DNA of 64,000 nucleotides from an uncultured bacterium (GTDB lineage: Bacteria; Poribacteria; WGA-4E; PCPOR2b): NCBI GenBank assembly GCA_964577695.1, contig CAZOAL010000006.1, forward strand, positions 177,511-241,510, read 5' to 3'. The translations under genes were made by a program, and so were the position numbers. How positions within the stretch are numbered: the first letter of the stretch is position 1; each line of letters starts with the position of its first letter. Below, in pieces: positions 2,942-25,700 of this stretch. The notes below the pieces were generated by a model. It made no database searches and had not been told where the DNA came from. It worked only from the letters and a program-made list of their open reading frames with translations.

Positions 2942-3247
2942 TTATGCCTTCGCTCCAAGTTCAACTTGCTCCAGTGATTCAGCGCGTATCACTTGTGCCA
3001 ACAGTTGATCCAATGTTTCTATGGAATCGATTTCCTGCACACGTTGTGCAGTGTCAGGTGGCAATTCGCCGAATCTGATTTGTAACTGCCGTGCCAGGAT
3101 TTCGCGCTTCGCTTTCAATTCGCCTCTCAGGACGTAAGGATTTACAATCTGCATCGGGGTCACCTCCTCTGTGAGAAAGCAAATGGGCTTATGCACGCTT
3201 TCTGAGATTAACTTGCTCCAACGATTCAGCGTGTATAGCTTGTTCAA
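2942..3247 (-). CDS. stand-alone DUF4351-like C-terminal module; tandem duplicate of the 3' end of the adjacent Rpn-family gene
   Basis: About 70% identical to the C-terminus of the next ORF (EEVTPMQIVNPY...LPPDT.QRVQEIDSIE.LD...AESLEQV.L); about 250 nt duplicated. Confidence 0.5.
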   Translation of the reverse strand: MNKLYTLNRWSKLISESVHKPICFLTEEVTPMQIVNPYVLRGELKAKREILARQLQIRFGELPPDTAQRVQEIDSIETLDQLLAQVIRAESLEQVELGAKA

Positions 3248-4106
3248 ACAATTTATCTAATTCCTCTATTGAATCGATCTCCTGCACCCGTTGTACTGTG
3301 TCAGGAGGCAATTCACTGAATTTGGCTTGCAATAAACGGGTCAGTGTTCTGTGCATTGCCTTCAATTCGCCTTGAATTTCGCCTCTCCGGATGTAAGGAT
3401 TTACAATCTGCATCGGGGTCACCTCCTCTGTGACGATGCGTTTCTGAACTTCTTCCTCCTCTTCGGGAGTGAGTTTGAGATACGTTTCTAAAAAATGGAA
3501 CAGCAGGGCACTTTGCACTTCATTCAAATTCTGGCATTCACCGATGCCGACGATACACACAGCTTTCAATTCCACCCGGCTCATCTCGTTTTTGAAATTC
3601 ATCAGCGGGGCCAGACCATAAGCCACGGGATTTTTCGTCTTGAGATACTCCGCCGCAGAGAGCTTGGGTAAGCTGATGCAGTGAAAGCGGTAAAGCAAGT
3701 ATTCGTCACCGAAAAGCTCTTCCGAATACGTTTCCCAGCCGAGTCCAACGGGAGCAGATGGGAGGTAAAGCACCCCAGCAAAAAGCCGGGTATCACCTCG
3801 CAAACGAATTTGGCAAAAATATCGAAACATCCGAAGTGGAAAGCCACTTTTGCGATCCGCTTGAAATTCAATATGAATGAGGATTAACTCCGGCTCCCCT
3901 GAAAGGGTTTTGATCTCAACAAGGGTATCAACATAACGATGCGCTCCCTCTGGGAAATCGGTGAACTTCTCCTGTTCCAGAAATTTGACCGTTGTAAAAT
4001 CCAGTTTCGCCGCGTGTTCTGGGAAGAACAGTTGCATGAATTCAGCAAACAACTGGTGTAACAATTCTTTGAAGAGTTGATCGTGGTCGATTGTCTCGTT
4101 ATTCAT
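3189..4106 (-). CDS. Rpn-family recombination-promoting nuclease / putative transposase (PD-(D/E)XK, YhgA-like) with a C-terminal DUF4351 module
   Basis: N-terminal HDQLFKELLHQLF...IHIEFQA motifs; start taken at MNNETIDHDQ. Confidence 0.65.
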   Translation of the reverse strand: MNNETIDHDQLFKELLHQLFAEFMQLFFPEHAAKLDFTTVKFLEQEKFTDFPEGAHRYVDTLVEIKTLSGEPELILIHIEFQADRKSGFPLRMFRYFCQIRLRGDTRLFAGVLYLPSAPVGLGWETYSEELFGDEYLLYRFHCISLPKLSAAEYLKTKNPVAYGLAPLMNFKNEMSRVELKAVCIVGIGECQNLNEVQSALLFHFLETYLKLTPEEEEEVQKRIVTEEVTPMQIVNPYIRRGEIQGELKAMHRTLTRLLQAKFSELPPDTVQRVQEIDSIEELDKLFEQAIHAESLEQVNLRKRA

Positions 4107-4174
4107 GCTCCTTATTTTACAGCGATTTGAGAGCAAAGTCAAGATACAAACCATGTAAAGGCATATAGAACCCA

Positions 4175-6103
4175 ATGAAAAAATCCGAACCTGAACATCT
4201 TCCCGCTCAAGTTACATGGCGGGCCTTACTTCTTGGCGTCCTGTTGATTCCGGTCAATGTTTACTGGATGACAATCGTCGAAGTAAAATACTATTCCCTC
4301 GACGGCTCTTGTCTCCCACTTTTCGTTGAACCTGTTTTTATCCTTTTTGTGATTATCCTTTTCAATTTACCCTTGAAGCGTTTCGCGCCGGGGGCAGTTC
4401 TGACGCAGGCGGAGCTCTTGACTATCTACATCATGGTGGCGATCTCCTGCACCTTCGCCGGACATGACACGCTCCAAAATATGTTTGGTAGCATCGTCCA
4501 CCCCTTCTGGTTTGCAACGCCGGAAAATGAGTGGCAGGAGCTATTCTTCCGCTACATCCCACGCTGGCTGACAGTGACCGACAGCCAAAGCCTCAAAGGG
4601 TTTTACGAAGGGGAATCGACTTTTTATCTGAGCCGAAACCTTTCCCTGTGGGCGAGACCACTCGCATTTTGGGGTCTGTTGTTTTTAGTGATGATGTTCA
4701 TGATGCTCTGCATCAACACGCTCATCCGTAAACGGTGGACTGAACAGGAGAAGCTCGCCTATCCGATTATCCAATTGCCGCTTGGGTTATCTGAAGATAG
4801 CGGCACAAAACTGCTGAAAAATCAGATGATGTGGATGGGGTTCAGCATTGCCGTCATCATCGGTCTCATCAACGGGATTCACTTTCTCGCGCCGCAATTC
4901 CCTGAAATCCCGTATATCAAACGAACGCTTATCTGGGATAACATCTTTACGGAGCGACCCTGGAGCGCGATGCGCGGCGTGCGGGTCTCAATGTACCCCT
5001 TCGCGATCGGATTGGCATTCTTCCTTCCGCTCGATTTGTCGTTTTCATGCTGGTTCTTCTTTGTCGTCCGGCTCATTGAACGGGTAATCGGCGAAGCGCT
5101 CGGTACGCGGTATTTTCCCGCGCTCAACGACCAGGCTTCCGGCGCATGGATTGCGCTGTTCTTCCTTGCGGTGTGGGTTACGCGCCGTCATTTAATCCAG
5201 GTCGGCAAAAAGATCTTTGGGCTTGATACGACGCTGGATGATTCCAACGAACCGATGCCGTATCGATGGGCGGCGATCGGCATTCTGGGTTCGATGCTCT
5301 TCATCGGCGCTTTCGTGTCTATCGCAGGGATGAAGCTATGGGTCGCGGGGATTTTCTTCGGACTGTATTTCATGCTCTCCTTTGCCATCACCCGGGTTCG
5401 AGCGGAGCTTGGCACGCCGCATGAGATCTATTTCGTCAACCCACACGACATCATGGCAACCGTGGGTGGGACTCGGCGCTTCGACCCGTCGAGTTTAACG
5501 ATTGTTTCCATGTTCTACTGGTTCAATCGCGGCTACCGAAACCACCCGATGCCGAACCAGATTGAGGCGTTCAAGATGGCGGAGGTCACCGGAATGGGGA
5601 ATCGACGCCTCTGGCTTGCGATGCTCATCGCTATCGTTGTGGGAATTTTTGCCACCTTTTGGGCGAACCTGGACATTACCTTTCGGAATGGCGCAATTGC
5701 AAAGGCGGGTGGATTCAAAGGGTGGGTCGGCTGGGAGTCCTTCAATCGGCTCCAGCGGTGGCTCATCAATCCATCAGACCCCAACTGGGCGGGGATTTCT
5801 TTCATGGGGGTTGGCGCAGTCCTGACCTTCCTCATGATGTTCATGCGGATGCGATTCTTATGGTGGCCCTTCCACCCTGCCGGATACGCCCTGGCGATCA
5901 GCTTTGCGATGGATTATTTCTGGTTCGCGTTCTTCGTGGCGTGGCTACTCAAGTACCTCATTCTGAGACACGGCGGCATCCAGATGCACCGGCGGGCGGC
6001 CCCCCTGTTTTTAGGGTTGATTCTGGGCGATTATGTGATCGGCAGCATCTGGGCGATTATTGGGCCGTCGTTCGGTATCCGAACCTACAAGATTTTTATA
6101 TGA
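4175..6103 (+). CDS. large polytopic membrane protein (more than 12 predicted TM segments), unknown function
   Basis: Long hydrophobic segments throughout; no family recognised. Confidence 0.6.
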   Translation: MKKSEPEHLPAQVTWRALLLGVLLIPVNVYWMTIVEVKYYSLDGSCLPLFVEPVFILFVIILFNLPLKRFAPGAVLTQAELLTIYIMVAISCTFAGHDTLQNMFGSIVHPFWFATPENEWQELFFRYIPRWLTVTDSQSLKGFYEGESTFYLSRNLSLWARPLAFWGLLFLVMMFMMLCINTLIRKRWTEQEKLAYPIIQLPLGLSEDSGTKLLKNQMMWMGFSIAVIIGLINGIHFLAPQFPEIPYIKRTLIWDNIFTERPWSAMRGVRVSMYPFAIGLAFFLPLDLSFSCWFFFVVRLIERVIGEALGTRYFPALNDQASGAWIALFFLAVWVTRRHLIQVGKKIFGLDTTLDDSNEPMPYRWAAIGILGSMLFIGAFVSIAGMKLWVAGIFFGLYFMLSFAITRVRAELGTPHEIYFVNPHDIMATVGGTRRFDPSSLTIVSMFYWFNRGYRNHPMPNQIEAFKMAEVTGMGNRRLWLAMLIAIVVGIFATFWANLDITFRNGAIAKAGGFKGWVGWESFNRLQRWLINPSDPNWAGISFMGVGAVLTFLMMFMRMRFLWWPFHPAGYALAISFAMDYFWFAFFVAWLLKYLILRHGGIQMHRRAAPLFLGLILGDYVIGSIWAIIGPSFGIRTYKIFI

Positions 6104-6199: not shown

Positions 6200-6276
6200 A
6201 ACTACTAACCACGTAAATTACGTCATTTGATTCGATGGAACCAACCCCATTACAACGCACAAGGGAAGATATTGAA

Positions 6277-6558
6277 ATGTCGCTTGTCAAAGTTATCCGA
6301 CATGGTCAAATTACTTTACCCGCAGGATTCCGTAAAGAATTAGCGATTCACGAGGGAGACTACCTGCAAGCTGAAATCCAAAAGGATTGCATCGTTCTCC
6401 GTCCACAAGTGGTGCTTGATCGCAACGATGCGATTTCTGCCTTGCATGCTCTCATGAACACAGTTCAAGATCGAACCGAAGGGATAAACGCAAAGACAAT
6501 CGATCAAGAAGTTGCAGAGGCGATCCAATCCATGCGACAGAAGAAACGCAATGCGTAA
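6277..6558 (+). CDS. AbrB/MazE/SpoVT-type DNA-binding antitoxin
   Basis: MSLVKVIRHGQITLPAGFRKEL looped-hinge-helix motif; overlaps the downstream PIN gene by 8 bp (ATGCGTAA). Confidence 0.65.
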   Translation: MSLVKVIRHGQITLPAGFRKELAIHEGDYLQAEIQKDCIVLRPQVVLDRNDAISALHALMNTVQDRTEGINAKTIDQEVAEAIQSMRQKKRNA

Positions 6559-7042
6559 AGTTGAACGAAGCGAAATCCCGAAAATCGGGGCGGTACTCGA
6601 TACCAACGTTATCATCAGTGCGCTTCTGACCCGTGGACGGACACCGGATCAGGTCGTGCGGCAGGCAGGGCTGACCTATCAGTTTTGTACGAGCCATGAA
6701 CTTTTGGAAGAAATTGAGGGCGTCTTACATGAGCCGAAGATTCAAAAAAGAAGCGGTATGACCGAAGCGGAGATGAGTGCGTTTTTAACGAACCTTCGAT
6801 CTGTTGCTGTTGTCGTTGAAGCGCTTCCGGCACTTCAGGTAATCAAAGACGACCCCGACGATGATTTGATTCTTGCCTGTGCGGTCAAAGCCCAAGCCGA
6901 TTATCTGGTCAGCGGAGACACTCACCTCTTACAACTTCAAACTTACGAAGGAATCCAGATCGTCTCTCCAGCACAGTTTCTCACCATCTTGCAACAATCT
7001 CAGGGGAAGAAAGAGAAAAACAATCCAAGGCACCCCCTATAA
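6551..7042 (+). CDS. PIN-domain toxin (TIGR00305-like toxin-antitoxin PIN family)
   Basis: VLDTNVIISAL N-terminal PIN signature and acidic residues further on. Confidence 0.65.
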   Translation: MRKVERSEIPKIGAVLDTNVIISALLTRGRTPDQVVRQAGLTYQFCTSHELLEEIEGVLHEPKIQKRSGMTEAEMSAFLTNLRSVAVVVEALPALQVIKDDPDDDLILACAVKAQADYLVSGDTHLLQLQTYEGIQIVSPAQFLTILQQSQGKKEKNNPRHPL

Positions 7043-7144
7043 ACCACTTTTTCACATGCTTCAATCTCACTCCCAGCACTCACAAAAAAACTGCGCTTTT
7101 GTGCATCTGAGTATTCCCTCACCCTTGGAAAGGTTGTACCGATA

Positions 7145-7903
7145 ATGCCACGAGTTAAACTGGAAATTTCCAATCGAGTCGCCACGCTCACCCTGACCCG
7201 CCCTGAAGTTCTCAACGCCATCGACCCGGCGATGTTGCGTGAGTTTGAGGCGGCATTGCATCAGGTGCGTCAGTCTTCGGATGTCGTGGTACTTGTGACG
7301 CAAGGCAGTGGGCGAGCGTTCTCAGCAGGCAGCGACCTGAAGGAGTTGGCGAAGTGCTCACCACAGGAGGCGGTTGAGTTCGAGGCTGAACATGGGCGCG
7401 TCTTTGCCCAACTAGAGACCCTGCCACAGATTACCGTGGCGGCGTGGCGCGGGTACGTCCTGGGCGGCGGACTCTTCATGGGTGTCTATCACGACTTCCG
7501 TGTGGCCGCACAAGGAGCGAGCATCGGTTTGCCGGAAGTGGCTCACGGCTGGACGCCTCCCTGGGGGGTTTCACGCCTGGTCGAATTGGTGGGCTGGCAG
7601 GCAGCCAAAAGGCTCATGCTATACGGTGGGCAGTTTGACGGTACAATGGCTCAACGGATGGGGTTAGCCGATGTGGTCTGGCCTGATGAGGTGTTTGAGC
7701 CGCAGTTGTGGGGGTGGGTAGAGGAACTTGCCTCCCGTCCGGCGACCGCCCTGCGCGAGACCAAGGCGTTGCTGCGTGAGATGCGAGCGTTAGACCACGC
7801 CTATTGGGAGCGACGAGCGGTGGAGGCATTTCAGCGTTGCTACGCGACGGATGAAGCGCAAGGTGCGGTGCAGCGGTTCGTTCAAGGTAAGAGTAAGAGG
7901 TGA
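7145..7903 (+). CDS. enoyl-CoA hydratase/isomerase (crotonase family)
   Basis: ATLTLTRPEVLNAI ... AFSAGSDLKE ... GYVLGGG crotonase motifs. Confidence 0.8.
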   Translation: MPRVKLEISNRVATLTLTRPEVLNAIDPAMLREFEAALHQVRQSSDVVVLVTQGSGRAFSAGSDLKELAKCSPQEAVEFEAEHGRVFAQLETLPQITVAAWRGYVLGGGLFMGVYHDFRVAAQGASIGLPEVAHGWTPPWGVSRLVELVGWQAAKRLMLYGGQFDGTMAQRMGLADVVWPDEVFEPQLWGWVEELASRPATALRETKALLREMRALDHAYWERRAVEAFQRCYATDEAQGAVQRFVQGKSKR

Positions 7904-7991
7904 TTGGTTTAATATTTTCATTTTGCGCTTGTTTTTGAGCCCAAATATGAATTTACCCCAACATCTTGTAATGGAGCTTTGAGATTCATTT

Positions 7992-8819
7992 ATGAAGCAA
8001 GAAAAATTCAATTTTCTTCGTTACCCAGGTGGAAAGCAAAGAATATTAAATCACTTAATACCTCACTTGCCGTTGCCAGAATCAATAAAGGGAAGGTTTG
8101 TAGAACCTTTTGTTGGTGGCGGTGCTGTTTTCTTTGCCTTGAATCCCAAACGAGCACTTTTGGCTGATATTAATTCGGAACTTATTGATCTATATCGTGG
8201 CCTACATCGTTATCCAGTCAAAGTTTGGGAAATATTCCAAGCATTTCCTCCAACGAAAAAGGCTTATTATGAAATTCGCGATTCAGATGTTGATGGATTG
8301 GATTTAGCATCACGAGCAGCCAGAACTCTCTATTTAAATAGGACGTGCTTTAAGGGTATGTGGAGACACAATTCAAATGGACAATTTAATGTTGGATATG
8401 GCGGCCAAGACAGGCGTTGGGTCATTAGCAAAGAAACTTTAATTGAGGTTTCTAGGAGGTTAAAGTATACCTCATTGAAAAGTAGTGATTTTGAAGAAGT
8501 GATTGATACTTGTACGGAGAGTGATTTCCTTTTTGCTGATCCTCCATACCGACCTGGTGAACGCGAAATGATTCATGATCATTATGTTTATCGCAGATTT
8601 AGCTATGATGATTATAAACGGTTGGCAAGTGTCTTAGAACGAGCATCTCACAAAGGAGTACAATGGACTATGACTACATCTTCCCACCATGATATATTGG
8701 ATCTGTTCCATGGAAATCGAATTATTTTGCTCCCGAAAGGCACAGGAAAAAAACCTGGCATACTCGCGGACAATCCTGGAGAAGTCTTAATCTGTAACTA
8801 CGAGGAGGCACCACAATGA
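7992..8819 (+). CDS. Dam-like DNA N6-adenine methyltransferase (D12 class)
   Basis: YPGGKQR N-terminal motif, FVEPFVGGGAV and DPPY motifs; AT-rich relative to its neighbours. Confidence 0.8.
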   Translation: MKQEKFNFLRYPGGKQRILNHLIPHLPLPESIKGRFVEPFVGGGAVFFALNPKRALLADINSELIDLYRGLHRYPVKVWEIFQAFPPTKKAYYEIRDSDVDGLDLASRAARTLYLNRTCFKGMWRHNSNGQFNVGYGGQDRRWVISKETLIEVSRRLKYTSLKSSDFEEVIDTCTESDFLFADPPYRPGEREMIHDHYVYRRFSYDDYKRLASVLERASHKGVQWTMTTSSHHDILDLFHGNRIILLPKGTGKKPGILADNPGEVLICNYEEAPQ

Positions 8820-11071
8820 AAGCGTTTTTTGAGAAAGCCGCGATGCAAAATCATCCCCTGCGAGTCTTAGAAACCTTCCTTAAACAGGAGAAGGCAAATG
8901 AGCAGGCGAAGAAGTATGACGATATGAGATTTGTCGGATATGTGCTTGAAATTGGCTACGATACAATTACAATCATCACTTGTGATCCATTTAAGATTGC
9001 TGTGGGTGGAGTTCCTCGGAATTCTTTGCTCATAATGGTGCCTGCAAGTCTTGATTCATTGCCTCTTCATTTTACTTTGCTCAGGGTTCTGGAATCTGCA
9101 CCCACTCCATTATCAAAAGAAGTTCAGCAAACCTACTTTGAGTTACAGAAAAAATCTATGCCTGAACTGGATGTATTCACCCAAAGCGAACTGCAATGGG
9201 GAGCACTTAAAACTGCTGTTCTCGGTATGTTCTATCCCCATCCTGAGAAAATGAATGCCGTCGAGTTTTCAGGTGACTTAAATAACTTCGTAAGTGCACA
9301 CAAATATCATGTGTACTCTCCAAATGATGACCTTTTGAATCTGATAGTTAATTCTATGGTACCTGACGAGAATCGCTTTGAAATAGGTAAACTGCGGCTG
9401 ACCGAGTGCCGTCTTCCTTTGCCCAATAAGCCTCTACCTGACGTTACCGTTCATGTTTCAACAAGAGATTTTATGGGTGCACGGACAGCAATGTTCGGTA
9501 AAACTCGACTTGGTAAAAGTAATGTTGTTAAGCTTATTGCCCAAAGCCTGATTGAGACGACAAATTTACAAAAAACGATTTTTGAGATCACAGAAACAAC
9601 TCTTCAGTCGCTAAAAAATGCTGAAGTACCAGAAGGAGTTATAGCAAAATTAGCAGAAAAAGATCAACACGTACAAGGTGTTAGTAAATTCAAAGAAGAA
9701 GTGTTATCTGTTTTAACTAACATTGAACAAAAAAATCACTCAAACATAATTATTGAGTGCTCGCATATTAAAGTAGGTCAACTCATTTTCGACATCACCG
9801 GTGAATACGCTAACGATAATCCACAGGATGATAGCCGCTCCCTTGCAAGTGGATATCCCGATCGTTGTTTTGTGTACGCTCTGAATCCCAAACCCTCGAC
9901 ACTATCGAAACCTTTGAAATTGAATTTTTATGAACAACCCGAAAGTTCGCACCGTATTATTGGAAGTTTGCTAAAACAAGATGGAAGAGCTTCAGGGTAT
10001 ATACAGAGTTTCATTAGTGTCGAATTACCTTCAATAGATGAAGTTAGACAACTGCCACCGGGAGGCGATCAGGTGGGGGCACTTAGGCAGATTCAGATCT
10101 TTTGGGCTATTCTTAAAAAAGCCGGATATCCCGTTGATGAATCTCGCCTTCGTTCAAAAGCTCCGACTGGCAGGGTAGCAAGTCAATTTAATCCTGGCTT
10201 CAGTAAAGATTTAAGAAAAGCAGTTTATGGGGATGAAAATTCCCCGCAACCGCCAAGTAGTCTTGATGAGTTAGTTAAAGAGTTTGAAAGGATAAACCGT
10301 TTTCGTAAGGAGAACTCAGATCACAAGTGCTTGGTCACTGATTCAAACAAATCCTTGTTTGACCCTGATGACATTGCACTCCTGGAATTTTTAGAACCGC
10401 AATCCGGACGGAGTGGAACAACACTTACCCAACCATACAGAATGTATCATGATAAGAATGCAGGAGATTTTATCAATGAAATCCTTAAACTTTTAGATGA
10501 TGGACAAACCGTGATCTTGGATTTAGGTAATGCGAATGAAGAAGTAAGAGACTACTTTTCTAATGAACTTTCAAAAGCAGTTTTTAATCACCAGAATGAC
10601 AAGTTCACAAATAATCGTTTGGGAAACCATTTTGTACAATTATATTTTGAAGAAGCACACAACCTTTTTCCGCACACCGAGGACGTAACTACTATTTACA
10701 GCCGTTTTTCAAAAGAAGGCGCAAAATACCATATCGGCATGGTATATTCCACTCAATCACCAACAACAGTTAATAAAGATTTACTCGCACAAACTGAGAA
10801 TTTCTTTATTGCTCATCTTTCCTCGCAGGATGAAGTCAATGCACTCGCAAGAGTTAACATTGCTTATGACAGCCTGAAAGACGACATACTTCGAGCAAAA
10901 ACCACTGGATATATCAGAATGTTGACTCGCTCACACCGCTTTGTGGTATCAGTACAAGCCAGAAGATTTACACCACCCACCACGGCAAAGGAAGCGGCTT
11001 ATGAAGCCACAGGCTTCCCCACGGCACATAAAAATACACTACCGCTATTTTCAGAGGAGGAAACGATATAA
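8816..11071 (+). CDS. HerA/FtsK-superfamily ATPase (HerA-like, DUF87): HAS-barrel N-terminus, Walker A GKTRLGKS, Walker B FEEAH
   Basis: Walker A at 9497-9524; Walker B LYFEEAHNLF at about 10641-10665; C-terminal YSTQSPTTVNKDLLAQTENFFIAHL resembles the HerA arginine-finger region. Overlaps the MTase by 4 bp. Confidence 0.7.
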   Translation: MKAFFEKAAMQNHPLRVLETFLKQEKANEQAKKYDDMRFVGYVLEIGYDTITIITCDPFKIAVGGVPRNSLLIMVPASLDSLPLHFTLLRVLESAPTPLSKEVQQTYFELQKKSMPELDVFTQSELQWGALKTAVLGMFYPHPEKMNAVEFSGDLNNFVSAHKYHVYSPNDDLLNLIVNSMVPDENRFEIGKLRLTECRLPLPNKPLPDVTVHVSTRDFMGARTAMFGKTRLGKSNVVKLIAQSLIETTNLQKTIFEITETTLQSLKNAEVPEGVIAKLAEKDQHVQGVSKFKEEVLSVLTNIEQKNHSNIIIECSHIKVGQLIFDITGEYANDNPQDDSRSLASGYPDRCFVYALNPKPSTLSKPLKLNFYEQPESSHRIIGSLLKQDGRASGYIQSFISVELPSIDEVRQLPPGGDQVGALRQIQIFWAILKKAGYPVDESRLRSKAPTGRVASQFNPGFSKDLRKAVYGDENSPQPPSSLDELVKEFERINRFRKENSDHKCLVTDSNKSLFDPDDIALLEFLEPQSGRSGTTLTQPYRMYHDKNAGDFINEILKLLDDGQTVILDLGNANEEVRDYFSNELSKAVFNHQNDKFTNNRLGNHFVQLYFEEAHNLFPHTEDVTTIYSRFSKEGAKYHIGMVYSTQSPTTVNKDLLAQTENFFIAHLSSQDEVNALARVNIAYDSLKDDILRAKTTGYIRMLTRSHRFVVSVQARRFTPPTTAKEAAYEATGFPTAHKNTLPLFSEEETI

Positions 11072-12394
11072 ATGCCATACAGAGCCGGACAACGTCTGCC
11101 AGCAGAAAAAGCAAGTCGCTTAGGACACCTTGATGTTCTAAAGAGCGATCTTGTCAAAGAACTATGCCACAGCTTTGAGGATCCCGAACTATCTATCACT
11201 TCACATAACGTTACGTGGGAACCTATACCTTCCAGCGGGGCTGCTGCCTTGCCATTGGTATTTGGCGTCGATGGTTCAATGCAACCTATCGAATCTGAGA
11301 CTCCACCTCATAAAGCGCTTGCATTTGTGAAAACGGCACTTTTAAGGATTGATTCATATGCTCTTGCAAAAATAGATAGAGATTCACCACACCCGTTTGC
11401 TCTAAGAGATATACTTGCAGATTCGGCGTTGTACCATGCCACGGTATTTCCACTAAGGAATGTGAGTATATCAGGACTAAATACCTATGATGCAATTCGC
11501 CAAATCATCTTTGAATCGGTTAAGGACGCCTCTTTGAAGGGCGAACCAATGGAAACGCTCAAATGGATTGTATATGGAAAATGGGATAATCAGGAAAAAG
11601 AACTTCCAAAGTTTGACTGCCCCCACTGTGAGGAGGAAGTTGCCACCCTACCGTATGATGTTGAAGAAGGGAAATGTCCAAAATGTAGCGAGAAATTATA
11701 TATTACCGATATGCTTGGCTTCCATCTAGAAATGGCTCCAGACTCAGCCCCCGATACCATAGCGACTGCATATATGAACATTCACGAGACGTTGCTCCTT
11801 TTTACTGGCATTCGCTACTTCTGGGAAACGAATAGAGATTTCTTATCTACTGATTGCCTTTTTGTGAAAGATGGTCCTCTCTCAATACGCGCTCAATACT
11901 CAAAACTGGTTGCACCAATTCGCCGCTTCTTGGCTTTTGCCAGGGAACAGGGTTATCCTGTGCATATCATTGGACAGGAAAAAACAGGCAGATTTGCAGA
12001 TTACCTACAATTGATAGGAAAGCACGCCCCTGTTCAGTCAATATTCATCCCCAACAATAAACATATTACAGAACATATTCAACATAGACCCCATCGTGGT
12101 GCCCCTTATGGGAGGGATACCAACTACGGTGCTAAAGTTTTCGTAAAAATCAATGACTATCACCAGATGGTATTGAATATTCCAACAGGTGCTTACAAAG
12201 AAAATCCAAAACAATCTGACCTCATTGGTGCTGATAGAATACTTGCTACATTACCGACGATTCTTAGTAATCGCTACGAAGGAGCACTCTTGCCAATTGA
12301 GCTTGCTCATGGTATTGCATCTCTATCAACCTATCCTTCAGCTCAGATTCTCAAAATTTTCGCCGAAAAAGCAATAAGTAAAAATACCCCATAA
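11072..12394 (+). CDS. putative NurA-like (RNase H-fold) nuclease with an inserted CxxC...CxxC zinc ribbon
   Basis: VFGVDGS (about 11258-11278) and LFVKDGPLS motifs resemble NurA motifs I and II; zinc ribbon CPHCEEE...CPKC; start abuts the HerA stop (TAAATG). Confidence 0.45.
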   Translation: MPYRAGQRLPAEKASRLGHLDVLKSDLVKELCHSFEDPELSITSHNVTWEPIPSSGAAALPLVFGVDGSMQPIESETPPHKALAFVKTALLRIDSYALAKIDRDSPHPFALRDILADSALYHATVFPLRNVSISGLNTYDAIRQIIFESVKDASLKGEPMETLKWIVYGKWDNQEKELPKFDCPHCEEEVATLPYDVEEGKCPKCSEKLYITDMLGFHLEMAPDSAPDTIATAYMNIHETLLLFTGIRYFWETNRDFLSTDCLFVKDGPLSIRAQYSKLVAPIRRFLAFAREQGYPVHIIGQEKTGRFADYLQLIGKHAPVQSIFIPNNKHITEHIQHRPHRGAPYGRDTNYGAKVFVKINDYHQMVLNIPTGAYKENPKQSDLIGADRILATLPTILSNRYEGALLPIELAHGIASLSTYPSAQILKIFAEKAISKNTP

Positions 12395-12440
12395 TTGACA
12401 CAGGACGGTGCATAATACAGGGAAAGAGTCGGAGGGAACC

Positions 12441-13988
12441 ATGGACATCGTCGGTCATCGCACACTATCGAGCATCTTCAGCCAGTTTGCGGCGTACCAC
12501 CCTGACAAGACATACCTGATATTTGAGGACCTGGAAGGAAGGTGCGAGCAATGGAGCTTCGCCCAATTCGAGGCGCGGGTCAATCAGACCGCCCGCTGGT
12601 TGACGGCAATGGGGATTCAGCGGGGCGATGCGTTCGCCTACCATGCCCCCAACTCGCCGACGTTCGTTGCGCTGGCTATCGCCGCCAGCCGTATCGGGGC
12701 GGTCATGGTGCCCACTGATCATCGCGCTACCGTCGAGGAGCTCACCTATATCCTCGACCACTCCGAATCGCGGCTCGTCGTCACCGAGCCTGAACAACTG
12801 AGCGTTGCGCAGGTTGCGGCGTCGGCGACCTCTTGCGTGCAAGACATTGTGCTGTCTCGGTGTGAGCGTCCCAACAGGCATCCGATCTTCGAGCGCGAGA
12901 TTGCTAGACAGGAGACCGCTCCGCCTGCCGTCGAGACCAGCCCCGATGATGTCGTCCATACGCTGTACACCTCCGGCACAACCAGCAAGCCCAAAGGCGT
13001 GTTGCTCACCAACAGGGCGTTGATTTACGGGGCTGAAGTCTTCGTTCGGGCGAGCGGGCTGCGAAACGATGACCGGCACCTCATCACACTGCCTGTCTTT
13101 CACGCCGCCGCCCAGTGCCATGCTTTCTGGCCCTCTCTGGTCTGTGGGGCGAGTATTGTCCTGTCTCCAAGATTCAGCCCCACGCGGTTTTTTGGACTCG
13201 CCATCCGGCATGGTTGCACCATGGCGGCGTTATTCTCATCCCCGTTGCGGTTGTTGCTCGCCCAGCCCCCCAACGAGAGTTGGCGAGCGCATCGGCTGAG
13301 AAACGTCACCTTCGCCATCGCCCTGACTGACGGGCAGTTCGCCGAGTGGGATAGGCGGTTCGGCGCGCCACTTCAGCACCTCTGGGGGATGACCGAAACG
13401 GTGGGACTGCCGCTGATGAGTCCGCTTTATGGCCCCCGGAATCTGGCATCTATGGGCCGACCTGTGCTGGGCTACGAGGTGAAAATCGTTGACAACGATG
13501 GAAACGAAGTGCCCCCCGGACAGATTGGACAAATCGTCGTCGCAGCGAAGCCCGGTCACACCGTCATGAAGGGGTATTTCAAGAACGAGAAGGCGACCCA
13601 TGAGACGATTCGGGATGGCTGGCTATATACCGGCGACAATGCCTATTACGATGAGCACGGGTTCCACTATTTCGTAGACCGCGGCAAAGAGATGATCAAG
13701 CGGGGCGGCGAAAACATCGCTCCCAGCGAAGTCGAGGAGGTCATCAAACTCCTTGAGGGCGTGGCTGACGTCGCAGTTGTCGGCGTCCCCGACCCGCTGT
13801 ACGACGAGGTTCCCAAGGCGTTCGTTATTCTCCATCCGGGAGCCACGCTTAACGCCGAACAGATTCTCGAACAGTGTCGCAGGGCGCTCACGAAGTTCAA
13901 GGTGCCTGTGTCGGTGACGTTCTTGAAGGAATTTCCGAGAACCTCTGTTGGAAAAATTCAGAAGCATTTGTTGCGGAATCAGGAATAA
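12441..13988 (+). CDS. AMP-dependent acyl-CoA synthetase/ligase
   Basis: YTSGTTSKPKGV AMP-binding motif; RBS ggaggg before the ATG at 12441. Confidence 0.8.
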   Translation: MDIVGHRTLSSIFSQFAAYHPDKTYLIFEDLEGRCEQWSFAQFEARVNQTARWLTAMGIQRGDAFAYHAPNSPTFVALAIAASRIGAVMVPTDHRATVEELTYILDHSESRLVVTEPEQLSVAQVAASATSCVQDIVLSRCERPNRHPIFEREIARQETAPPAVETSPDDVVHTLYTSGTTSKPKGVLLTNRALIYGAEVFVRASGLRNDDRHLITLPVFHAAAQCHAFWPSLVCGASIVLSPRFSPTRFFGLAIRHGCTMAALFSSPLRLLLAQPPNESWRAHRLRNVTFAIALTDGQFAEWDRRFGAPLQHLWGMTETVGLPLMSPLYGPRNLASMGRPVLGYEVKIVDNDGNEVPPGQIGQIVVAAKPGHTVMKGYFKNEKATHETIRDGWLYTGDNAYYDEHGFHYFVDRGKEMIKRGGENIAPSEVEEVIKLLEGVADVAVVGVPDPLYDEVPKAFVILHPGATLNAEQILEQCRRALTKFKVPVSVTFLKEFPRTSVGKIQKHLLRNQE

Positions 13989-15197: not shown

Positions 15198-15521
<324 letters not shown>

Positions 15522-15522
15522 G

Positions 15523-15876
15523 ATGAAACTGCTGATGGATGAAAATATGCCCAGAGAAGCGGCCGACTTGCTACGAAATTCAGGACATGATGTCAAGTCC
15601 ATCCAGGATTTGAACTTACAGGGAACGAAAAATGGCGACATCTATCGACTCATACAGGCGGAAGATCGAATGCTCGTCACATTAGATTTGGATTTTGCCA
15701 ATATTCTGAACTATCCCACGCAGACGCATCCGGGAATCATTGTTTTGCGAGTTCGAGTACAAAATCCACCCTCAATCGTAGCAACCTTGCAACGTTTTCT
15801 CCAACAAGTGACCCCTGATCGACTGAAGGGAAATCTGACGATTGTTGATGAATTTCGCTACCGGATGAGGTCCTGA
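15523..15876 (+). CDS. DUF5615 (PIN-like) protein paired with DUF433
   Basis: MKLLMDENMP N-terminus; overlaps the upstream DUF433 gene. Confidence 0.55.
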   Translation: MKLLMDENMPREAADLLRNSGHDVKSIQDLNLQGTKNGDIYRLIQAEDRMLVTLDLDFANILNYPTQTHPGIIVLRVRVQNPPSIVATLQRFLQQVTPDRLKGNLTIVDEFRYRMRS

Positions 15877-16252: not shown

Positions 16253-19216
16253 ATGAACGCAATTTATTCAAGCAACCTGCAATCCATTCATAGCACCTTT
16301 GATTATCGCGAGAAATCAAGAAAGCAAGAGAACCGACAAACCAGCAGACTGACTTTCCGGCTTTCTGGTTCTCTTGGGCTTGTCCTCCTGCTGACCCTCT
16401 CCTGCCTCTCCGCCGCTTTTGCGGAACTCACCCCCACCACCCTGAAGCATGACGGTTGGGTATATTCAGTCGCCTTCAGCCCCGATGGAAAACTGCTGGC
16501 GACGGGGTCAAATGACAACACCGCCAAGGTGTGGGAGATGCCGTCGGGGGTGCTGTTGGCCACCCTCAAGCATGGCAGTTCTGTCCGGTCAGTCGCCTTC
16601 AGCCCCGATGGAAAGCTGTTGGTGACGGGGTCAGATGACAACACCGCCAAGGTGTGGGAGATGCCCGCTGGGAGGCTGATTGCCATCCTGAAGCATGACG
16701 ATGATGTAAATTCAGTCGCCTTCAGCCCCGATGGGACGCTGTTGGCGACGGGGACACGGCTAGCTGCCAAGGTGTGGGAGATGCCGTCGGGGGTGCTGAT
16801 GGCCACCCTGAAGCATGACGATTGGGTCGGGTCAGTCGCCTTCAGCCCCGATGGAAAGCTGCTGGCGACGGGGTCAGATGACAACACCGCCAAAGTGTGG
16901 GAGATGCCGTCGGGGGTGCTGATGGCCACCCTGAAGCATGACCCTATTGTAGGTTTTGTCTCCGTCGCCTTCAGCCCCGATGGGAAGCTACTAGCGACGG
17001 GGTCAGCGGACAAGACCGCCAAGGTGTGGGAGATGCCGTCGGGGAGGCTGATTGCCACCCTGAAGCATGACAATTATGTAAATTCAGTCACCTTCAGCCC
17101 CGATGGGAAGCTACTGGCGACGGGGTCTTATGACAACACCGCCAAGGTGTGGGAGATGCCGTCGGGGGTGCTGATGGCCACCCTCAAGCATGACGGTGAT
17201 GTCCGTTCAGTCGCCTTCAGCCCCGATGGAACGCTGCTGGCGACGAGGTCAAATCTCTGGAACAGTAATCTACAAAAATATACAATATCTGAAGCCAAAG
17301 TCTGGGAGATGCCGTCGGGGGTGCTGATTGCCACTCTCAAGCATGGTGATGGGGTCAGTTCAGTCGCCTTCAGCCCCGATGGGACGCTGCTGGCGACGGG
17401 GTCTGGTGGCAGTAGTAGGGTGTGGGCATCAAATACTGCTGATATTCCAATCCTCACGCAACCTTCAGATGGAAGCAAATTTGTAAACGCACTCCCCGAA
17501 CTAAAGTGGGGGAGGGTCCCGGATGTTTGGCTGTATCAAGTACAGGTGTCTAAAGACAAGAACTTTTCACAGATGGCAGTGGAGGCTTTCACCGGCGCAG
17601 AATCGTTGCAATCCAATATGGGGCAAATGGGTAGAGGTATTTTCTTTTGGCGTGTACGCCTAGTGGGATGGACTTTCGGAAACTGGTCGGAGGTTTGGAC
17701 ATTTAACATAGACCTGCCCGTTGTCCTCACCAAAATCAGCAATCAAGCAGGCTTGGACATCACCGTAGATATCGTCATCGAAGAGGTGAAAAACCTGTCG
17801 GGATTCCAGTTGAATCTGGGCTTTGATCCAAGCGTGCTGGAAACGGTCGGAGTTACCGAAGGTTCATTCCTCAAAAGCGACGGCAGCGGCACGTTCTGGA
17901 AACCTCCTGAGATTGACAATGTGGGGGGACAAATTCGCAACATCACAGGGGCGCGAATCGCTGCAACAGGCGTGGAGGGCTTGGGTGTGTTGGCGAGCGT
18001 TCAGTTCAAAGCCAAAAAGACCGGAACCTCCAGGTTGACCCTCAGCAGCGTCCAGCTGTCCGATGTGCAGAATAACGCTATTCCGCTGGTCACGGCAAGC
18101 GGCAGCGTGGAAATCGGCGCGACATCGATATTGAAGCCGGTGACAAAGGTGGACAAGTCCATCGTTGTCGAAGTGGTTGCGGGTAACGTCTTCAACCTGC
18201 ACGCCTTCAGCTTTGACCTGGCTTACGATGCGAAGTTGCTGGAAGTGATGGACGTGAGCGAAGGCGATCTGCTCAAACGGGATGGACATCAAACGACCTT
18301 TGGCGCTCCAAAGGTTGACGCTTCAAACGGCATCATCACAGGCATCACTGCGGAGAGGGTCAAGAAAGAGGGCGTGAACGCATCCGGAGTATTGGCGCGA
18401 ATTGAGTTTAAGATCTGGGAAGGCGGTGCTCCCAAATTCAGCATTCGCAACAGCAACCTGCGAGACCCGAACGGAAATGTCGTCTTGGCGACGCCCCAGG
18501 ATGCCAGCGTTACTGTCGTCGCTTCGCCGGAGTGGGACGTGAACAAAGATTACGTGGTGAACATTTTGGATCTGGTCATTATCGGCAGCAACTTCGGCAA
18601 AACGATCAGCGGCAAGCCCCGCCCCAATCCCGATGTCAAACCCGATGGCGTCGTGAATATCTTCGACATCATCCCCGTCGCCACCCATTTCGGTGAGAGT
18701 TACAGTGCCGTGCCGCAGCCCCCCGCCGCGCCTTTCGCTTTGCGCCTGGGGGAGAATAGGAATTATCGCGGTCAAGAGACCGCTCTCACAACGGCTCAAC
18801 GCGCCATTTTGCAATCGCTCTATGAAAAGCTGAAGGCTTATCCCGATACGGACCCTTCGGTGGTCGTCGTCAAGCGGTTGTTGGCGGCATTGCTGTCGAT
18901 AAAATCAGAACCAGCTTTGCCGGAAGTGACGCGACTGGCTCAGAACTATCCCAACCCCTTCAACCCCGAAACATGGATTCCGTACCAGTTAGCTCACGAT
19001 GCAGAGGTGCAGATTACCATCTACGACCTTAAAGGTTCAGTGGTGCGTCGGTTAGATCTGGGGCATCAGAAGGCGGGCTACTACGCTAATCGGGACAGTG
19101 CGGCGTATTGGGACGGCCGGAATGAGGCAGGTGAACGGGTTTCAAGCGGTGTGTATTTCTACACCTTCACCGCGGGAGCGTTCACTGAAACGCGAAGGCT
19201 GATAGTGCTGAAGTAG
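16253..19216 (+). CDS. secreted WD40-repeat protein (about 10 near-identical repeats) with cohesin/dockerin-like regions and a T9SS-type (Por_Secre_tail / FlgD-Ig-like) C-terminal domain
   Basis: Repeats VAFSPDGKLLATGSDDNTAKVWEM; DVNKDYVVNILDLVIIGSNFGK dockerin-like; C-terminal NYPNPFNPETWIPYQL...IYDLKG. Confidence 0.7.
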   Translation: MNAIYSSNLQSIHSTFDYREKSRKQENRQTSRLTFRLSGSLGLVLLLTLSCLSAAFAELTPTTLKHDGWVYSVAFSPDGKLLATGSNDNTAKVWEMPSGVLLATLKHGSSVRSVAFSPDGKLLVTGSDDNTAKVWEMPAGRLIAILKHDDDVNSVAFSPDGTLLATGTRLAAKVWEMPSGVLMATLKHDDWVGSVAFSPDGKLLATGSDDNTAKVWEMPSGVLMATLKHDPIVGFVSVAFSPDGKLLATGSADKTAKVWEMPSGRLIATLKHDNYVNSVTFSPDGKLLATGSYDNTAKVWEMPSGVLMATLKHDGDVRSVAFSPDGTLLATRSNLWNSNLQKYTISEAKVWEMPSGVLIATLKHGDGVSSVAFSPDGTLLATGSGGSSRVWASNTADIPILTQPSDGSKFVNALPELKWGRVPDVWLYQVQVSKDKNFSQMAVEAFTGAESLQSNMGQMGRGIFFWRVRLVGWTFGNWSEVWTFNIDLPVVLTKISNQAGLDITVDIVIEEVKNLSGFQLNLGFDPSVLETVGVTEGSFLKSDGSGTFWKPPEIDNVGGQIRNITGARIAATGVEGLGVLASVQFKAKKTGTSRLTLSSVQLSDVQNNAIPLVTASGSVEIGATSILKPVTKVDKSIVVEVVAGNVFNLHAFSFDLAYDAKLLEVMDVSEGDLLKRDGHQTTFGAPKVDASNGIITGITAERVKKEGVNASGVLARIEFKIWEGGAPKFSIRNSNLRDPNGNVVLATPQDASVTVVASPEWDVNKDYVVNILDLVIIGSNFGKTISGKPRPNPDVKPDGVVNIFDIIPVATHFGESYSAVPQPPAAPFALRLGENRNYRGQETALTTAQRAILQSLYEKLKAYPDTDPSVVVVKRLLAALLSIKSEPALPEVTRLAQNYPNPFNPETWIPYQLAHDAEVQITIYDLKGSVVRRLDLGHQKAGYYANRDSAAYWDGRNEAGERVSSGVYFYTFTAGAFTETRRLIVLK

Positions 19217-22554: not shown

Positions 22555-22695
22555 AGGGTTGGTCATTATTCTCAGGGGAGGCAATCGTAGCCCAAGATTT
22601 CGACAAGCTCAACCCGGCGGATTCTATCTTGGCCCCTGGCGCATGGGCCAAGATAGAATCTTGGGCTACAACTCAACCGCCGGCGAATTATGACC
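22555..22695. mobile_element. MITE-like repeat family B, copy 2 (composite). Its terminal ATGACCAAGCC supplies the first ATG of the downstream giant ORF
   Basis: cgtagcccaagatt...ggccaagatagaatcttgggctac core; gaattatgaccaagcc end. Confidence 0.6.
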
Positions 22696-22719
22696 AAGCC
22701 TTACTTACCTAAATTTACA

Positions 22720-25700
22720 ATGGTAAACCGAAAGAAAGCAGCAAAGATGAGAGATTGGAAAAAGAAAAGTTATATCATCTTATCCATCATCGTTGGTAGC
22801 CTGTACATCTTCGCAACGTCTACTGTTGCCCAAGAGATTAAACGTCAGTCTATCCCTGTTGGAATGTTCAATGTGTATGCCACCATTGACAACAACAATA
22901 CCGGTCTGCCAACGCCCGACCTCCGCGATGTCTGGCAGGGCGTGCCGACAAACTGGGAGGGGGGCTACTACCCTTACGAAGCGTGTAACCTTGTGCAGCA
23001 CTACTGGCCGAAGGAACTTCCGACGGATGTGCCACCGGGACAGGATGCGTATGTCGTTTGGTGGACACGGTTTCTCCGGGAGGTTTACGAGCAAGGCAAC
23101 GAGAAGGGCGAGGTTCGATTGCGTGCGATTGTCGGTCCACTTTTCAGCCATTACGAAGCGTTCGGCGAGCAGTGGCTCATCAATTTTATCCAACGGCTCT
23201 GTGAGTGGGAGCGGAGCGGCCCACACGATGGCGTAATTGCCGGATGGTATCTCATCGAAGAGCCAATGGGGTCGGGCTCGCACAACTTCAACGTTGACAC
23301 CTTTGAGGAGATGGCGAAGGTCGTCGATAAAGCGGAAACGGCCGGTGGCTTTCGACACCATGACCGCTATGTTGATGTTTCCCTTGATGGGGCATTTTTC
23401 ACTCCACAGGGGCTGGCGCGTTTCTGCCGCCCAGCCGATGTCGTGATGGTCAGCTCCAGCAGCTATCTCTGGCTGACGAGTGGGACGCAGCCTGTATTTA
23501 ATACGCGTTATCGGGATTTAGCGTTCTCAATGAACCAGGTTCGCCGCACCGTTTTTCCAGACCATGACCAACACGGGCTGCCGCGTCCTAAGATTCATCT
23601 CGTCCTGCAAGCCTACGATCCGATGGGGTTTGGACAACCGACGCATTGGGAGATGCGCCAGCAAATTCGAGAGGCGTTGACCCTTGATTTTGAATTGCTC
23701 GGCAACCAACCGGTTGCACCAGCGGATGGAATCTGGTTTTTCTGGTGGCCGGGGCTGACCTTTGAGAACAAAAACCGTGTGGACGACTGGCTCTACGGAC
23801 GACAGATTGCGGAAGCGATCGAGCTTGAAGTGGCAGAGGTGACGGGTAACGGAGGTGAAACCCGGTCTGTGAATGTGCCGACAGCATCCCGCTTTGCCTT
23901 CCCACCGCTGGTTCCCTTCAACCCGGACGATGGCATCATCCCCTACGAGTTGGCAAAGTCAGGGCTTGTCACAATCGAAATCCTCGACATGAATGGCTCT
24001 AAGGTTCAGGCGTTTGACATGGGGATTCAGAGCGCGGGGCGGCTGCACCGGTTCGGAGGCCCCCGCTGGTTGCCACTCTCAACCCAGCCTGACGGGCGAT
24101 ATATCTTCCGGCAGTTTCTCAACTCCGTCCCCGTTGACAGCGTTGAGGTGGAAGTGCAACGGCAACCACGCCTCTTTAGCCCTTCCCATGTGCCCAACAT
24201 TTGGTCAAACGACAACACCATTGAGGTGACATGGCGTCCACCCGCTCTGGGCGCGGGGTTGGGGGGATTTTCATTTCTGTGGAGCAATTCTCCTTTCAGC
24301 ATTCCGCCTCGCACCGTTGCACTGACGCCATCGGATGTCACGTATACAAGTCCACCGTTGCCGGATGGGAAATCGCACTATTTTCATCTCCTAAGCGTCG
24401 ATGCAAACGGCGAATGGGGGGAGACATCGCATTTAGGCCCATTCTGGATTGATACGATACCCCCAGCTTTACCTACCGATGTTGTCAGCTCCAGTCATAA
24501 GACCGGAATTTGGTCATCGGCAAACGTGATTGATATCAAATGGTCTGCTGCGCCCCCCCCTCAATCCCCCCCGCGGGCAGGGGGTGAAGAGGGGCCTCCC
24601 CCCCTGCCCGCGGGGGGGACAGGGGGGGGGGCGTCTTTGCGCGGCTATTCAATCGTCTGGGACCGTCAGCCGTTCACGCTCCCGCCAGCGGAGATTAACG
24701 TTGGGCCCGCTGTCACTGCACTCTCGACGCCTCCACTTGTGGACGGCATCTGGTATCTGCACTTGCGCCCTGCGGATGTCGCTGGCAACTGGACAAGCGA
24801 TGCTGTGCACCTTGGCCCCTTCCAGATTGACACCCACTCGCCCAATCCACCGTCCGACTTGAGGGGCGTCTCTCATCAGGTCGGCGTCTGGTCAAACCGT
24901 GCCGAGATTGAGTTGGAATGGACAGCCGCTTCGGATGAAACCAGCGGCATCAAAAATTATCTCATCGTTTGGGATACCTCCCCGGACACACATCCAACGC
25001 CTGATGCCAATCCGTCCATCTTCCTTCCGCCCCTACTTGCAGGGGGGGGGGCTGGCAATTCGCCTAAGGTCAGCTACCGTGGCCCTGCCCTCGTTGATGG
25101 CGATACCCATTACGTCCATCTTCGCGCTGTGGATGGTGCCGGGCTGACGACAGATGAAACGCTCCATCTCGGTCCCTTCCGAATCGACGCAACCCCGCCG
25201 GGCGATATTCGTGGCTTTGCCGCGTATGGCGTAGAGCCCCCGCCAACCCCTCCCCTCTCGCCTCTCCCCGCTAGCGGAGAGGTTCCGCTTGACCTCAACA
25301 AGTGGCTGATCTCCCCTCAAATGATCCTTGCGTGGCAGGTAAGCACAGATTCCGGTAGCAGCGTTGCGGTCTACGAAATTACGCGAGTGCGCCCGGAAAC
25401 GGGAGAACAGCAGACCTTCCAAATCAACGCGGATGCGCCATCTCAATGGACCCCGGCAGGTCTGAGCGATGGTGCTTGGGTATTTCGCCTCCGGGCCGGC
25501 GATAACGCTGGTAACTGGAGCGCTTATTCCGACCTGACGCTCAAGATTGATACCACCGTGCCAACGCCTATCCTCAACAGTCCCTCCCACCCGAATAGCG
25601 AACGCTGGTACGCGGATGCGAATCCAATCGTCGAATGGATGATTGAGCGCGATCTATCCGGCATCGCGGGGTATCTTGGAGAATGGAGCGATCAACCGGA

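Follow-up and report, generated by a model that had tools for sequence, protein, structure and literature searches.

TdpABC is reportedly a phosphorothioate (PT)-based, restriction-modification (R-M)-like system of thermophiles, said to have been presented by An et al. in Nat Chem Biol in 2025 (PDB 8wet, 8wfd and 8y1k). In that system, the PT sulfur reportedly disturbs the contacts between TdpA and the DNA backbone, which halts translocation and cleavage on self DNA. Elsewhere, TdpABC is classed among the PT-based R-M systems; its consensus is given as GATC, and the modification is ascribed to tdpC alone (PMC12914056). In the related HerA-NurA complex, a HerA hexamer and a NurA dimer translocate on and degrade double-stranded DNA (PDB 7f6d, 9x1l-n; PMC12977600). 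Here, we describe a cassette of three genes, g1, g2 and g3, for a DNA methyltransferase (MTase), a HerA-type ATPase and a NurA-fold nuclease. It lies in a 64,000-nucleotide stretch (the window) of contig CAZOAL010000006.1 from an uncultured bacterium of the Poribacteria. The cassette is probably a horizontally mobile, R-M-like defence system, in which methylation marks self and the HerA-NurA pair destroys unmarked DNA.

An earlier reading, made from the DNA letters alone (the sequence-only reading), had placed an AT-rich island exactly between a crotonase gene and an acyl-CoA ligase gene. This was borne out by a GC content of 0.37-0.45 over 8001-12500 versus 0.55-0.62 in the flanks (7001-8000 and 12501-13500) and by Pfam, which identified the neighbours as an enoyl-CoA hydratase (ECH) and an AMP-binding ligase; the JGI gene call places the start of the latter at the equivalent of window position 12441. 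The island consists of three open reading frames (ORFs) on the plus strand (Table 1), which are translationally coupled exactly as claimed: g1 and g2 share a 4-bp ATGA overlap, and g2 and g3 meet at TAAATG. No other ORF is present in the island, hence there is no separate Type II endonuclease gene beside the MTase. All the motifs that had been quoted were also found in the translations (YPGGK and DPPY in g1; GKTRLGKS and FEEAH in g2; VDGS, KDG and CPHC...CPKC in g3).

Empty sites were sought by a metagenome scan with the ligase, followed by tblastn. One was found at locus L030 (ligase 70% and ECH 63% identical), where about 20 bp separate the end of the ECH gene from the ligase gene. The two genes are likewise directly adjacent in about 30 more distant orthologous pairs, in keeping with the idea that they normally belong together. 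Since such empty sites exist, the low-GC island is an insertion between the ECH and ligase genes. The insertion must be old in this lineage, because at locus L002, which carries the cassette at the identical site, the flanks (73% and 80% identical to the window) have diverged about as much as the cassette itself (77-81%). The island ends show neither terminal inverted or direct repeats nor a target-site duplication. A single, weak sigma-70-like match lies at 7979-8007, and promoter-like and terminator matches in the region are no commoner than in shuffled sequence.

The assignment of g1 to the D12-class N6-adenine MTases was upheld by two models with curated cut-offs, namely PF02086 (E=6.8e-45; 154 bits against 22) and the dam-subfamily model TIGR00571 (180.9 bits against 114.85). 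The PADLOC model MTase_II matches it at E=5e-61. Homologs of g1 occur, for example, in Thermodesulfovibrio yellowstonii and Rosettibacter firmus. Its closest relatives in the PDB, both of which act at GATC, are DpnM/M.DpnII (2dpm; 1.3e-36) and E. coli Dam (2e-23), with which the motifs EPFVGGGAV, YPGGK and the catalytic FADPPYRP can be aligned. By these matches g1 is a Dam-family N6-adenine MTase, and it is likely to be specific for GATC. Of the E. coli Dam residues with roles in the Dam-DNA structure, R124 and K9 have conserved counterparts (R125 and R10), and L122M, P134G and N120K are changed. Three palindromes are strongly under-represented across the whole window, with observed/expected ratios of 0.40 for GGCC, 0.42 for CTAG and 0.48 for GATC, which would fit a lineage under several restriction pressures. 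As GATC is less depleted than GGCC and CTAG, its depletion lends weak support to an R-M function.

g2 is a HerA-type ATPase that is most similar to TdpA. It scores 34.3 bits against PF01935 (gathering score 23.2), and its Walker A and Walker B motifs are invariant among homologs, so that the proposed HerA/FtsK type was confirmed. The matches to the NCBIfam equivalogs for repair HerA are weak, at 26-28 bits against cut-offs of 800-970, as is the match of PADLOC mad8, which covers only the C-terminal part. The TdpA subunit of the TdpAB complex (8wet/8wfd) is the best structural match. A HAS-barrel had been proposed as well and is putative; the AlphaFold2 model has a beta-rich N-domain, and 369 residues could be aligned with TdpA. 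The N-terminal region is strongly invariant and includes the conserved block TPLS...QQTYFELQKKSMPELD.... A predicted helical insertion after the Walker A helix is restricted to the clade of the window (proteins of 745-760 residues) and is absent in the majority of homologs (654-673 residues); a C-terminal tail of about 25 residues is likewise missing from most homologs. In one HerA homolog on a 1.6-Mb contig (P0399, 771 residues), about 100 extra residues match the N-terminus of the NurA partner (MPFQAGRRLPGERASKIGHLEV...VDGS...); HerA and NurA are either naturally fused here, or a frameshift or an assembly error has joined them.

By its own sequence, g3 has no match in Pfam, NCBIfam, PADLOC, PHROGs or the PDB sequences, and the Pfam NurA family (PF09376) is not matched even at E<=1. 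Of the profiles proposed as checks for the trio, PF02086 was found on g1 and PF01935 on g2, but not PF09376 on g3 itself, and PADLOC recognised g1 but nothing on g3. In an exhaustive search, the homologs, which come from bacteria, archaea, plasmids and prophages, fell into 585 clusters at 50% identity and about 2,000 at 90%. PF09376 is matched directly by 14 of 62 full-length members of this family (best 8.5e-26), which provides a transitive link to NurA, and UniRef and PGAP label some of the relatives NurA. Structural comparison revealed an RNase H-like NurA fold, and the best match was the TdpB subunit of TdpAB (8wet/8wfd). When the 62 members (23-66% identity) were aligned, D213, D267 and G268 were invariant, and D67, G68, E239, E303, K304, G306 and four cysteines were conserved in at least 90%. 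Taken together, the fold, the conserved acidic residues and the matching relatives sustain the NurA-like character that had been suggested for g3, which is a NurA-fold nuclease most similar to TdpB.

From the NurA fold, D67 would be a catalytic residue, and the conserved acidic residues would include the metal ligands. In T. kodakarensis NurA, the D49A variant served as the nuclease-dead control (PMC12977600). The zinc ribbon of g3 is probably an insertion relative to TdpB and NurA. A profile of the 62 sequences searched against the PDB was dominated by zinc-ribbon matches (ribosomal and eRF1-type), and its only sequence-level match to TdpB had an E-value of 1.1, at profile positions 236-290. 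Residues 1-19 (11072-11130) form a near-invariant peptide, M1-x-Y3 ... E12-x-A14-S-K ... H19, that is kept down to 23% identity. It was modelled with low confidence and may be the tail by which g3 docks onto HerA.

The trio is conserved as a unit in other genomes, which the sequence-only reading had set as a point for checking. The order MTase, HerA, NurA holds in each of six contexts retrieved by exact protein matches, in all 18 genome or metagenome loci whose upstream DNA reaches far enough (out of the first 20 loci) and in three of three IMG/VR viral contigs. The near clade as a whole thus has the trio complete and in order at 21/21 loci, with the D12 MTase as the only modification gene. 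These loci belong to Acidobacteriota, Chloroflexota, Cyanobacteria, Deinococcota, Campylobacterota, Ignavibacteriota, WOR-3, Candidatus Aerophobus (Aerophobetes-type) and Methanophagales. The divergence of the MTase and that of the nuclease are correlated across 16 loci (r=0.88). The exception is formed by loci where the D12 MTase has been swapped for one of another subfamily (33-38% identity, versus 52-60% for HerA).

The top 120 homologs of g3 are 72-96% identical and come from both bacteria and archaea, which points to frequent horizontal transfer; proteins of 72-82% identity occur in Poribacteria, Spirochaetota, Ignavibacteriota, WOR-3, Methanophagales and Nitrososphaeraceae. Several copies sit in mobile elements. 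At locus L109, within a lambdoid prophage, the trio separates the CI-type repressor from the integrase, and in a Vibrio prophage element the cassette lies between int and xis. In Rosettibacter, an integrase fragment and an HNH gene precede the cassette (an integrase fragment lies beside the cassette at L001), and relatives of about 25% identity were found on plasmids. Across bacteria, archaea and prophages, the trio is passed on as a single unit. In a WOR-3 metagenome-assembled genome (MAG; L004, 1521-4893), a second MTase, of the N6_N4 type, and ORFs of 409 and 338 residues lie on the opposite strand directly upstream of the trio. Neither ORF has a Pfam match; these genes are possibly another R-M-like module, and the region a small defence island.

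In the relatives of about 25% identity, a full-length g2 homolog still accompanies the g3 homolog, and the third partner varies. A beta-class N6_N4 MTase is found upstream of the pair in Deferribacter and downstream of it in Halorarius, and in Vibrio a D12 MTase lies on the opposite strand. Three cyanobacterial plasmids (from Tolypothrix, Calothrix and Nostoc; L022, L026 and L027) carry no MTase but an XRE-type helix-turn-helix (HTH) gene followed by HerA and NurA, and in Tolypothrix the pair is followed by an 816-residue RNase_T exonuclease/STAND-NTPase protein. This variant may be a distinct defence subtype that works without modification. Judging from the exchanged MTases and from the clade that has none, the core does not seem to depend on a single recognition sequence.

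Two of the copies have decayed. On plasmid pDF308 of Deferribacter desulfuricans (L023, 3126-6924), an IS200/IS605 tnpA-tnpB element splits HerA, and the N6_N4 MTase and NurA are intact. In a Blastocatellia MAG (L007, 1797-3161 and 4489-5712), both the MTase and HerA are interrupted, the former by an IS66-family transposase and the latter by a DDE transposase. An intact HerA-NurA pair with a dead MTase was not seen among the loci examined (a small sample, with these two decayed copies), a pattern that R-M logic predicts.

The following mechanism can be envisaged. g1 would methylate the host DNA, probably at GATC or a site much like it. Six g2 subunits would form an ATP-driven translocase on double-stranded DNA, with a g3 dimer as its cap, after the model of the TdpAB and HerA-NurA structures, and this machine would load on DNA and degrade it processively. 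Methylated self sites would stop or exclude the machine, so that only unmethylated phage or plasmid DNA would be destroyed, and the cassette would at the same time act as an addiction module for its carrier, like other R-M modules. Candidate readers of the methyl group are the zinc ribbon of g3, the invariant N-terminal region of g2 and the single-strand channels of NurA. Protection of self DNA and restriction of unmodified invaders are thus inferred properties of the cassette. The modification-dependent self/non-self discrimination that had been suggested at the outset gains support from the protein identities, the inheritance as a unit, the mobility, the placement in prophages and plasmids and the modularity of the partners. 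A bolder version can be offered only tentatively and is rather doubtful: a sequence-independent HerA-NurA ring translocase-exonuclease would read base methylation (N6-methyladenine or the marks of swapped MTases) as a stop or self signal while it translocates, and the cassettes would constitute a large, pan-prokaryotic, unnamed class of R-M systems. If true, a methyl mark would arrest the machine in a way analogous to Chi or PT, and the ancestral role of HerA-NurA would be the destruction of invader DNA, not recombinational end resection.

The alternative that survives best, although we consider it unlikely, is a defence system that responds to something other than methylation, for instance to free DNA ends or to a phage protein, or that acts by abortive infection, with the MTase serving to protect the mobile element from restriction by the host or a competitor, or in epigenetic regulation. 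SIR2-HerA and DUF4297-HerA defence work without modification, as the MTase-less loci on the three cyanobacterial plasmids might, and the swaps of MTase class or subfamily show a core that is not bound to one site. Canonical HerA-NurA, moreover, is loaded at the ends of DNA, of which it degrades both strands (PMC12977600). Such a trigger is, however, hard to square with a coupled MTase in every near-clade locus and with its recurrent, independent linkage in distant clades, and the closest solved relative, TdpAB, is controlled by modification.

It is still less probable that the cassette is in essence a selfish module, which stabilises mobile elements by post-segregational killing and defends only as a by-product. 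The mechanism would be unchanged, and such addiction is compatible with defence, the two not being mutually exclusive. The very wide transfer with high sequence conservation, the plasmid and prophage copies and the toxin-antitoxin modules near the island would fit this explanation. The chromosomal copy, however, has stayed at the same site in the window and in L002 despite about 20% divergence, without other mobile-element genes around it.

A housekeeping HerA-NurA pair for the resection of double-strand breaks, beside an unrelated orphan Dam, is very improbable. The name 'DNA double-strand break repair nuclease NurA', given by PGAP to distant relatives, and the weak NCBIfam matches to repair-type HerA are the points in its favour. 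Neither the window nor any annotated locus has Mre11 or Rad50 neighbours, the distribution is patchy across domains with high identity, and the island is an insertion with known empty sites and has prophage and plasmid copies. The three genes are also translationally coupled and co-diverge. For these reasons, and because the equivalog cut-offs are missed with 26-28 against 800-970 bits, the repair function was rejected. The least probable explanation, that the marks of the MTase recruit or orient HerA-NurA in a MutH-like (hemimethylation) or Type IV-like manner, can draw on the way Dam methylation directs MutH in E. coli and on the zinc ribbon of g3 as a possible DNA reader, but an attack on the mark of its own MTase would be suicidal, and no methyl-reader domain (SRA, DpnI-type wH, YTH or ASCH) was found in g2 or g3 in the Pfam, NCBIfam and PADLOC scans.

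Table 1. Features of the cassette and its flanks (window positions).
Feature	Position	Strand	Basis or remark
Left flank: enoyl-CoA hydratase (ECH), host gene outside the cassette	7145..7903	+	PF00378 (ECH_1), E=1e-44
Leader, 88 bp, AT-rich	7904..7991	+	Between ECH stop codon and g1 start; left island boundary, presumed promoter region
g1: Dam-family (D12 class) N6-adenine DNA methyltransferase, 275 aa	7992..8819	+	Pfam, NCBIfam, PADLOC and PDB matches
g2: HerA/FtsK-superfamily ATPase of TdpA type, 751 aa	8816..11071	+	PF01935; TdpA alignment
g2 Walker A, G228-KTRLGK-S235	9497..9520	+	Invariant in 45 homologs; aligns with TdpA FGKTGFGKSN
g2 insertion of ~66 residues (~aa 250-318) after the Walker A helix	9563..9769	+	Predicted helical
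g2 Walker B, F611-EEAHN-616	10646..10663	+	Invariant in 45 homologs; aligns with TdpA EEAHN
g3: NurA-fold (RNase H-like) nuclease of TdpB type with inserted (probable) zinc ribbon, 440 aa	11072..12394	+	
g3 motif D67-G68-S69 (VDGS), presumed first catalytic aspartate, strand 1 of the fold	11270..11278	+	Conservation; NurA fold
g3 zinc ribbon, C183, C186 ... C202, C205	11618..11686	+	All four Cys at least 90% conserved
g3 acidic core: D213, E239, D267-G268 (KDGPL), G301-x-E303-K304-x-G306	11708..11983	+	Conservation
Right flank: acyl-CoA ligase (AMP-binding), host gene outside the cassette	12441..13988 (12408 alternative start)	+	PF00501, E=2e-76, and PF13193

Toxin-antitoxin-like pairs lie on both sides of the island. 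The left pair consists of a MazE-type antitoxin (6235-6558) and a PIN toxin (6512-7042), and the right pair of a DUF433 protein (15234-15521) and a DUF5615/PIN-like protein (15502-15876). Further genes nearby encode a YhgA-like Transposase_31 protein (3189-4175, minus strand), a 987-residue protein with a WD40 beta-propeller and a cohesin domain (16253-19216, plus strand) and an ORF of 2030 residues (22690-28782, plus strand).

No description of an MTase-HerA-NurA system was found in full-text literature searches, in line with the impression that the trio is undescribed, although the primary Tdp paper or REBASE may already mention MTase-linked homologs of TdpAB. The cassette is foreshadowed by Tdp and by the general theme of HerA in defence. 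PADLOC-DB v2 has no model for g3, and the nuclease subunit is missed by current defence-finder libraries for this reason; as a consequence, annotations of such loci show an orphan Dam next to a DUF87 protein and a hypothetical protein. If confirmed, the cassette would represent a methylation-based branch of HerA-NurA/TdpAB-type defence that is far commoner than the PT version of thermophiles. It would also pose a mechanistic puzzle, namely how a ring motor that tracks the backbone, together with a NurA nuclease, can sense a methyl group in the major groove. The finding bears on the long-running question of whether HerA-NurA are resection enzymes or anti-invader nucleases, on which a study published in 2026, of the complex from T. 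kodakarensis, favours an anti-invader role (PMC12977600).

Among the known systems, DndFGH and other 'HerA/FtsK capture' systems differ from the cassette in having a nuclease of the restriction endonuclease (REase) fold in a multi-domain arrangement, with no NurA partner (PMC10853773, PMC12839542); neither of these two papers describes the trio. In SIR2-HerA (Nezha) and DUF4297-HerA (Gao_Her), there is no modification gene, and the effector is not the NurA-fold nuclease seen here. Having neither SIR2 nor DUF4297, the cassette is not a Gao_Her system. It resembles the DpnII/MboI-type Type II R-M systems, which recognise GATC, in that g1 is nearest to M.DpnII and a methylase and a nuclease share one operon. 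The nuclease partner is, however, a two-protein, ATP-dependent translocase-nuclease by prediction, and neither g2 nor g3 matches an REase family in Pfam, NCBIfam or PADLOC. Without an REase, the cassette does not belong to the Type II R-M systems.

Compared with canonical HerA-NurA, found in the archaeal Mre11-Rad50-HerA-NurA operon and in Deinococcus, linkage to an MTase replaces that to Mre11/Rad50. The cassette is mobile and patchy in distribution, g3 fails the Pfam NurA model, and the 26-28 bits of g2 fall far short of 800-970. Because Mre11/Rad50 are absent and the repair HerA cut-offs are so widely missed, it is not a repair operon. The closest resemblance is to TdpABC, since g2 is a TdpA-like ATPase and g3 a TdpB-like nuclease, and both match subunits of one solved complex. 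g3 nevertheless differs from TdpB (375 residues) in its length of 440 residues, its zinc ribbon and the lack of detectable sequence similarity (E=1.1). The modification gene, in the window and at the 21 near-clade loci, is for a Dam-family MTase that uses S-adenosylmethionine; there is no TdpC, and the cassette is for that reason not a Tdp system, although its mode of action is probably similar. Its mark would be a methyl group on a base in the major groove, in contrast to the backbone sulfur of TdpABC. Unlike thermophile TdpABC, the cassette also occurs in soil, marine and gut-type MAGs and in Vibrio prophages. It is most likely an uncharacterised, methylation-based relative or counterpart of TdpABC, in which the modification module has been exchanged for a methylase.

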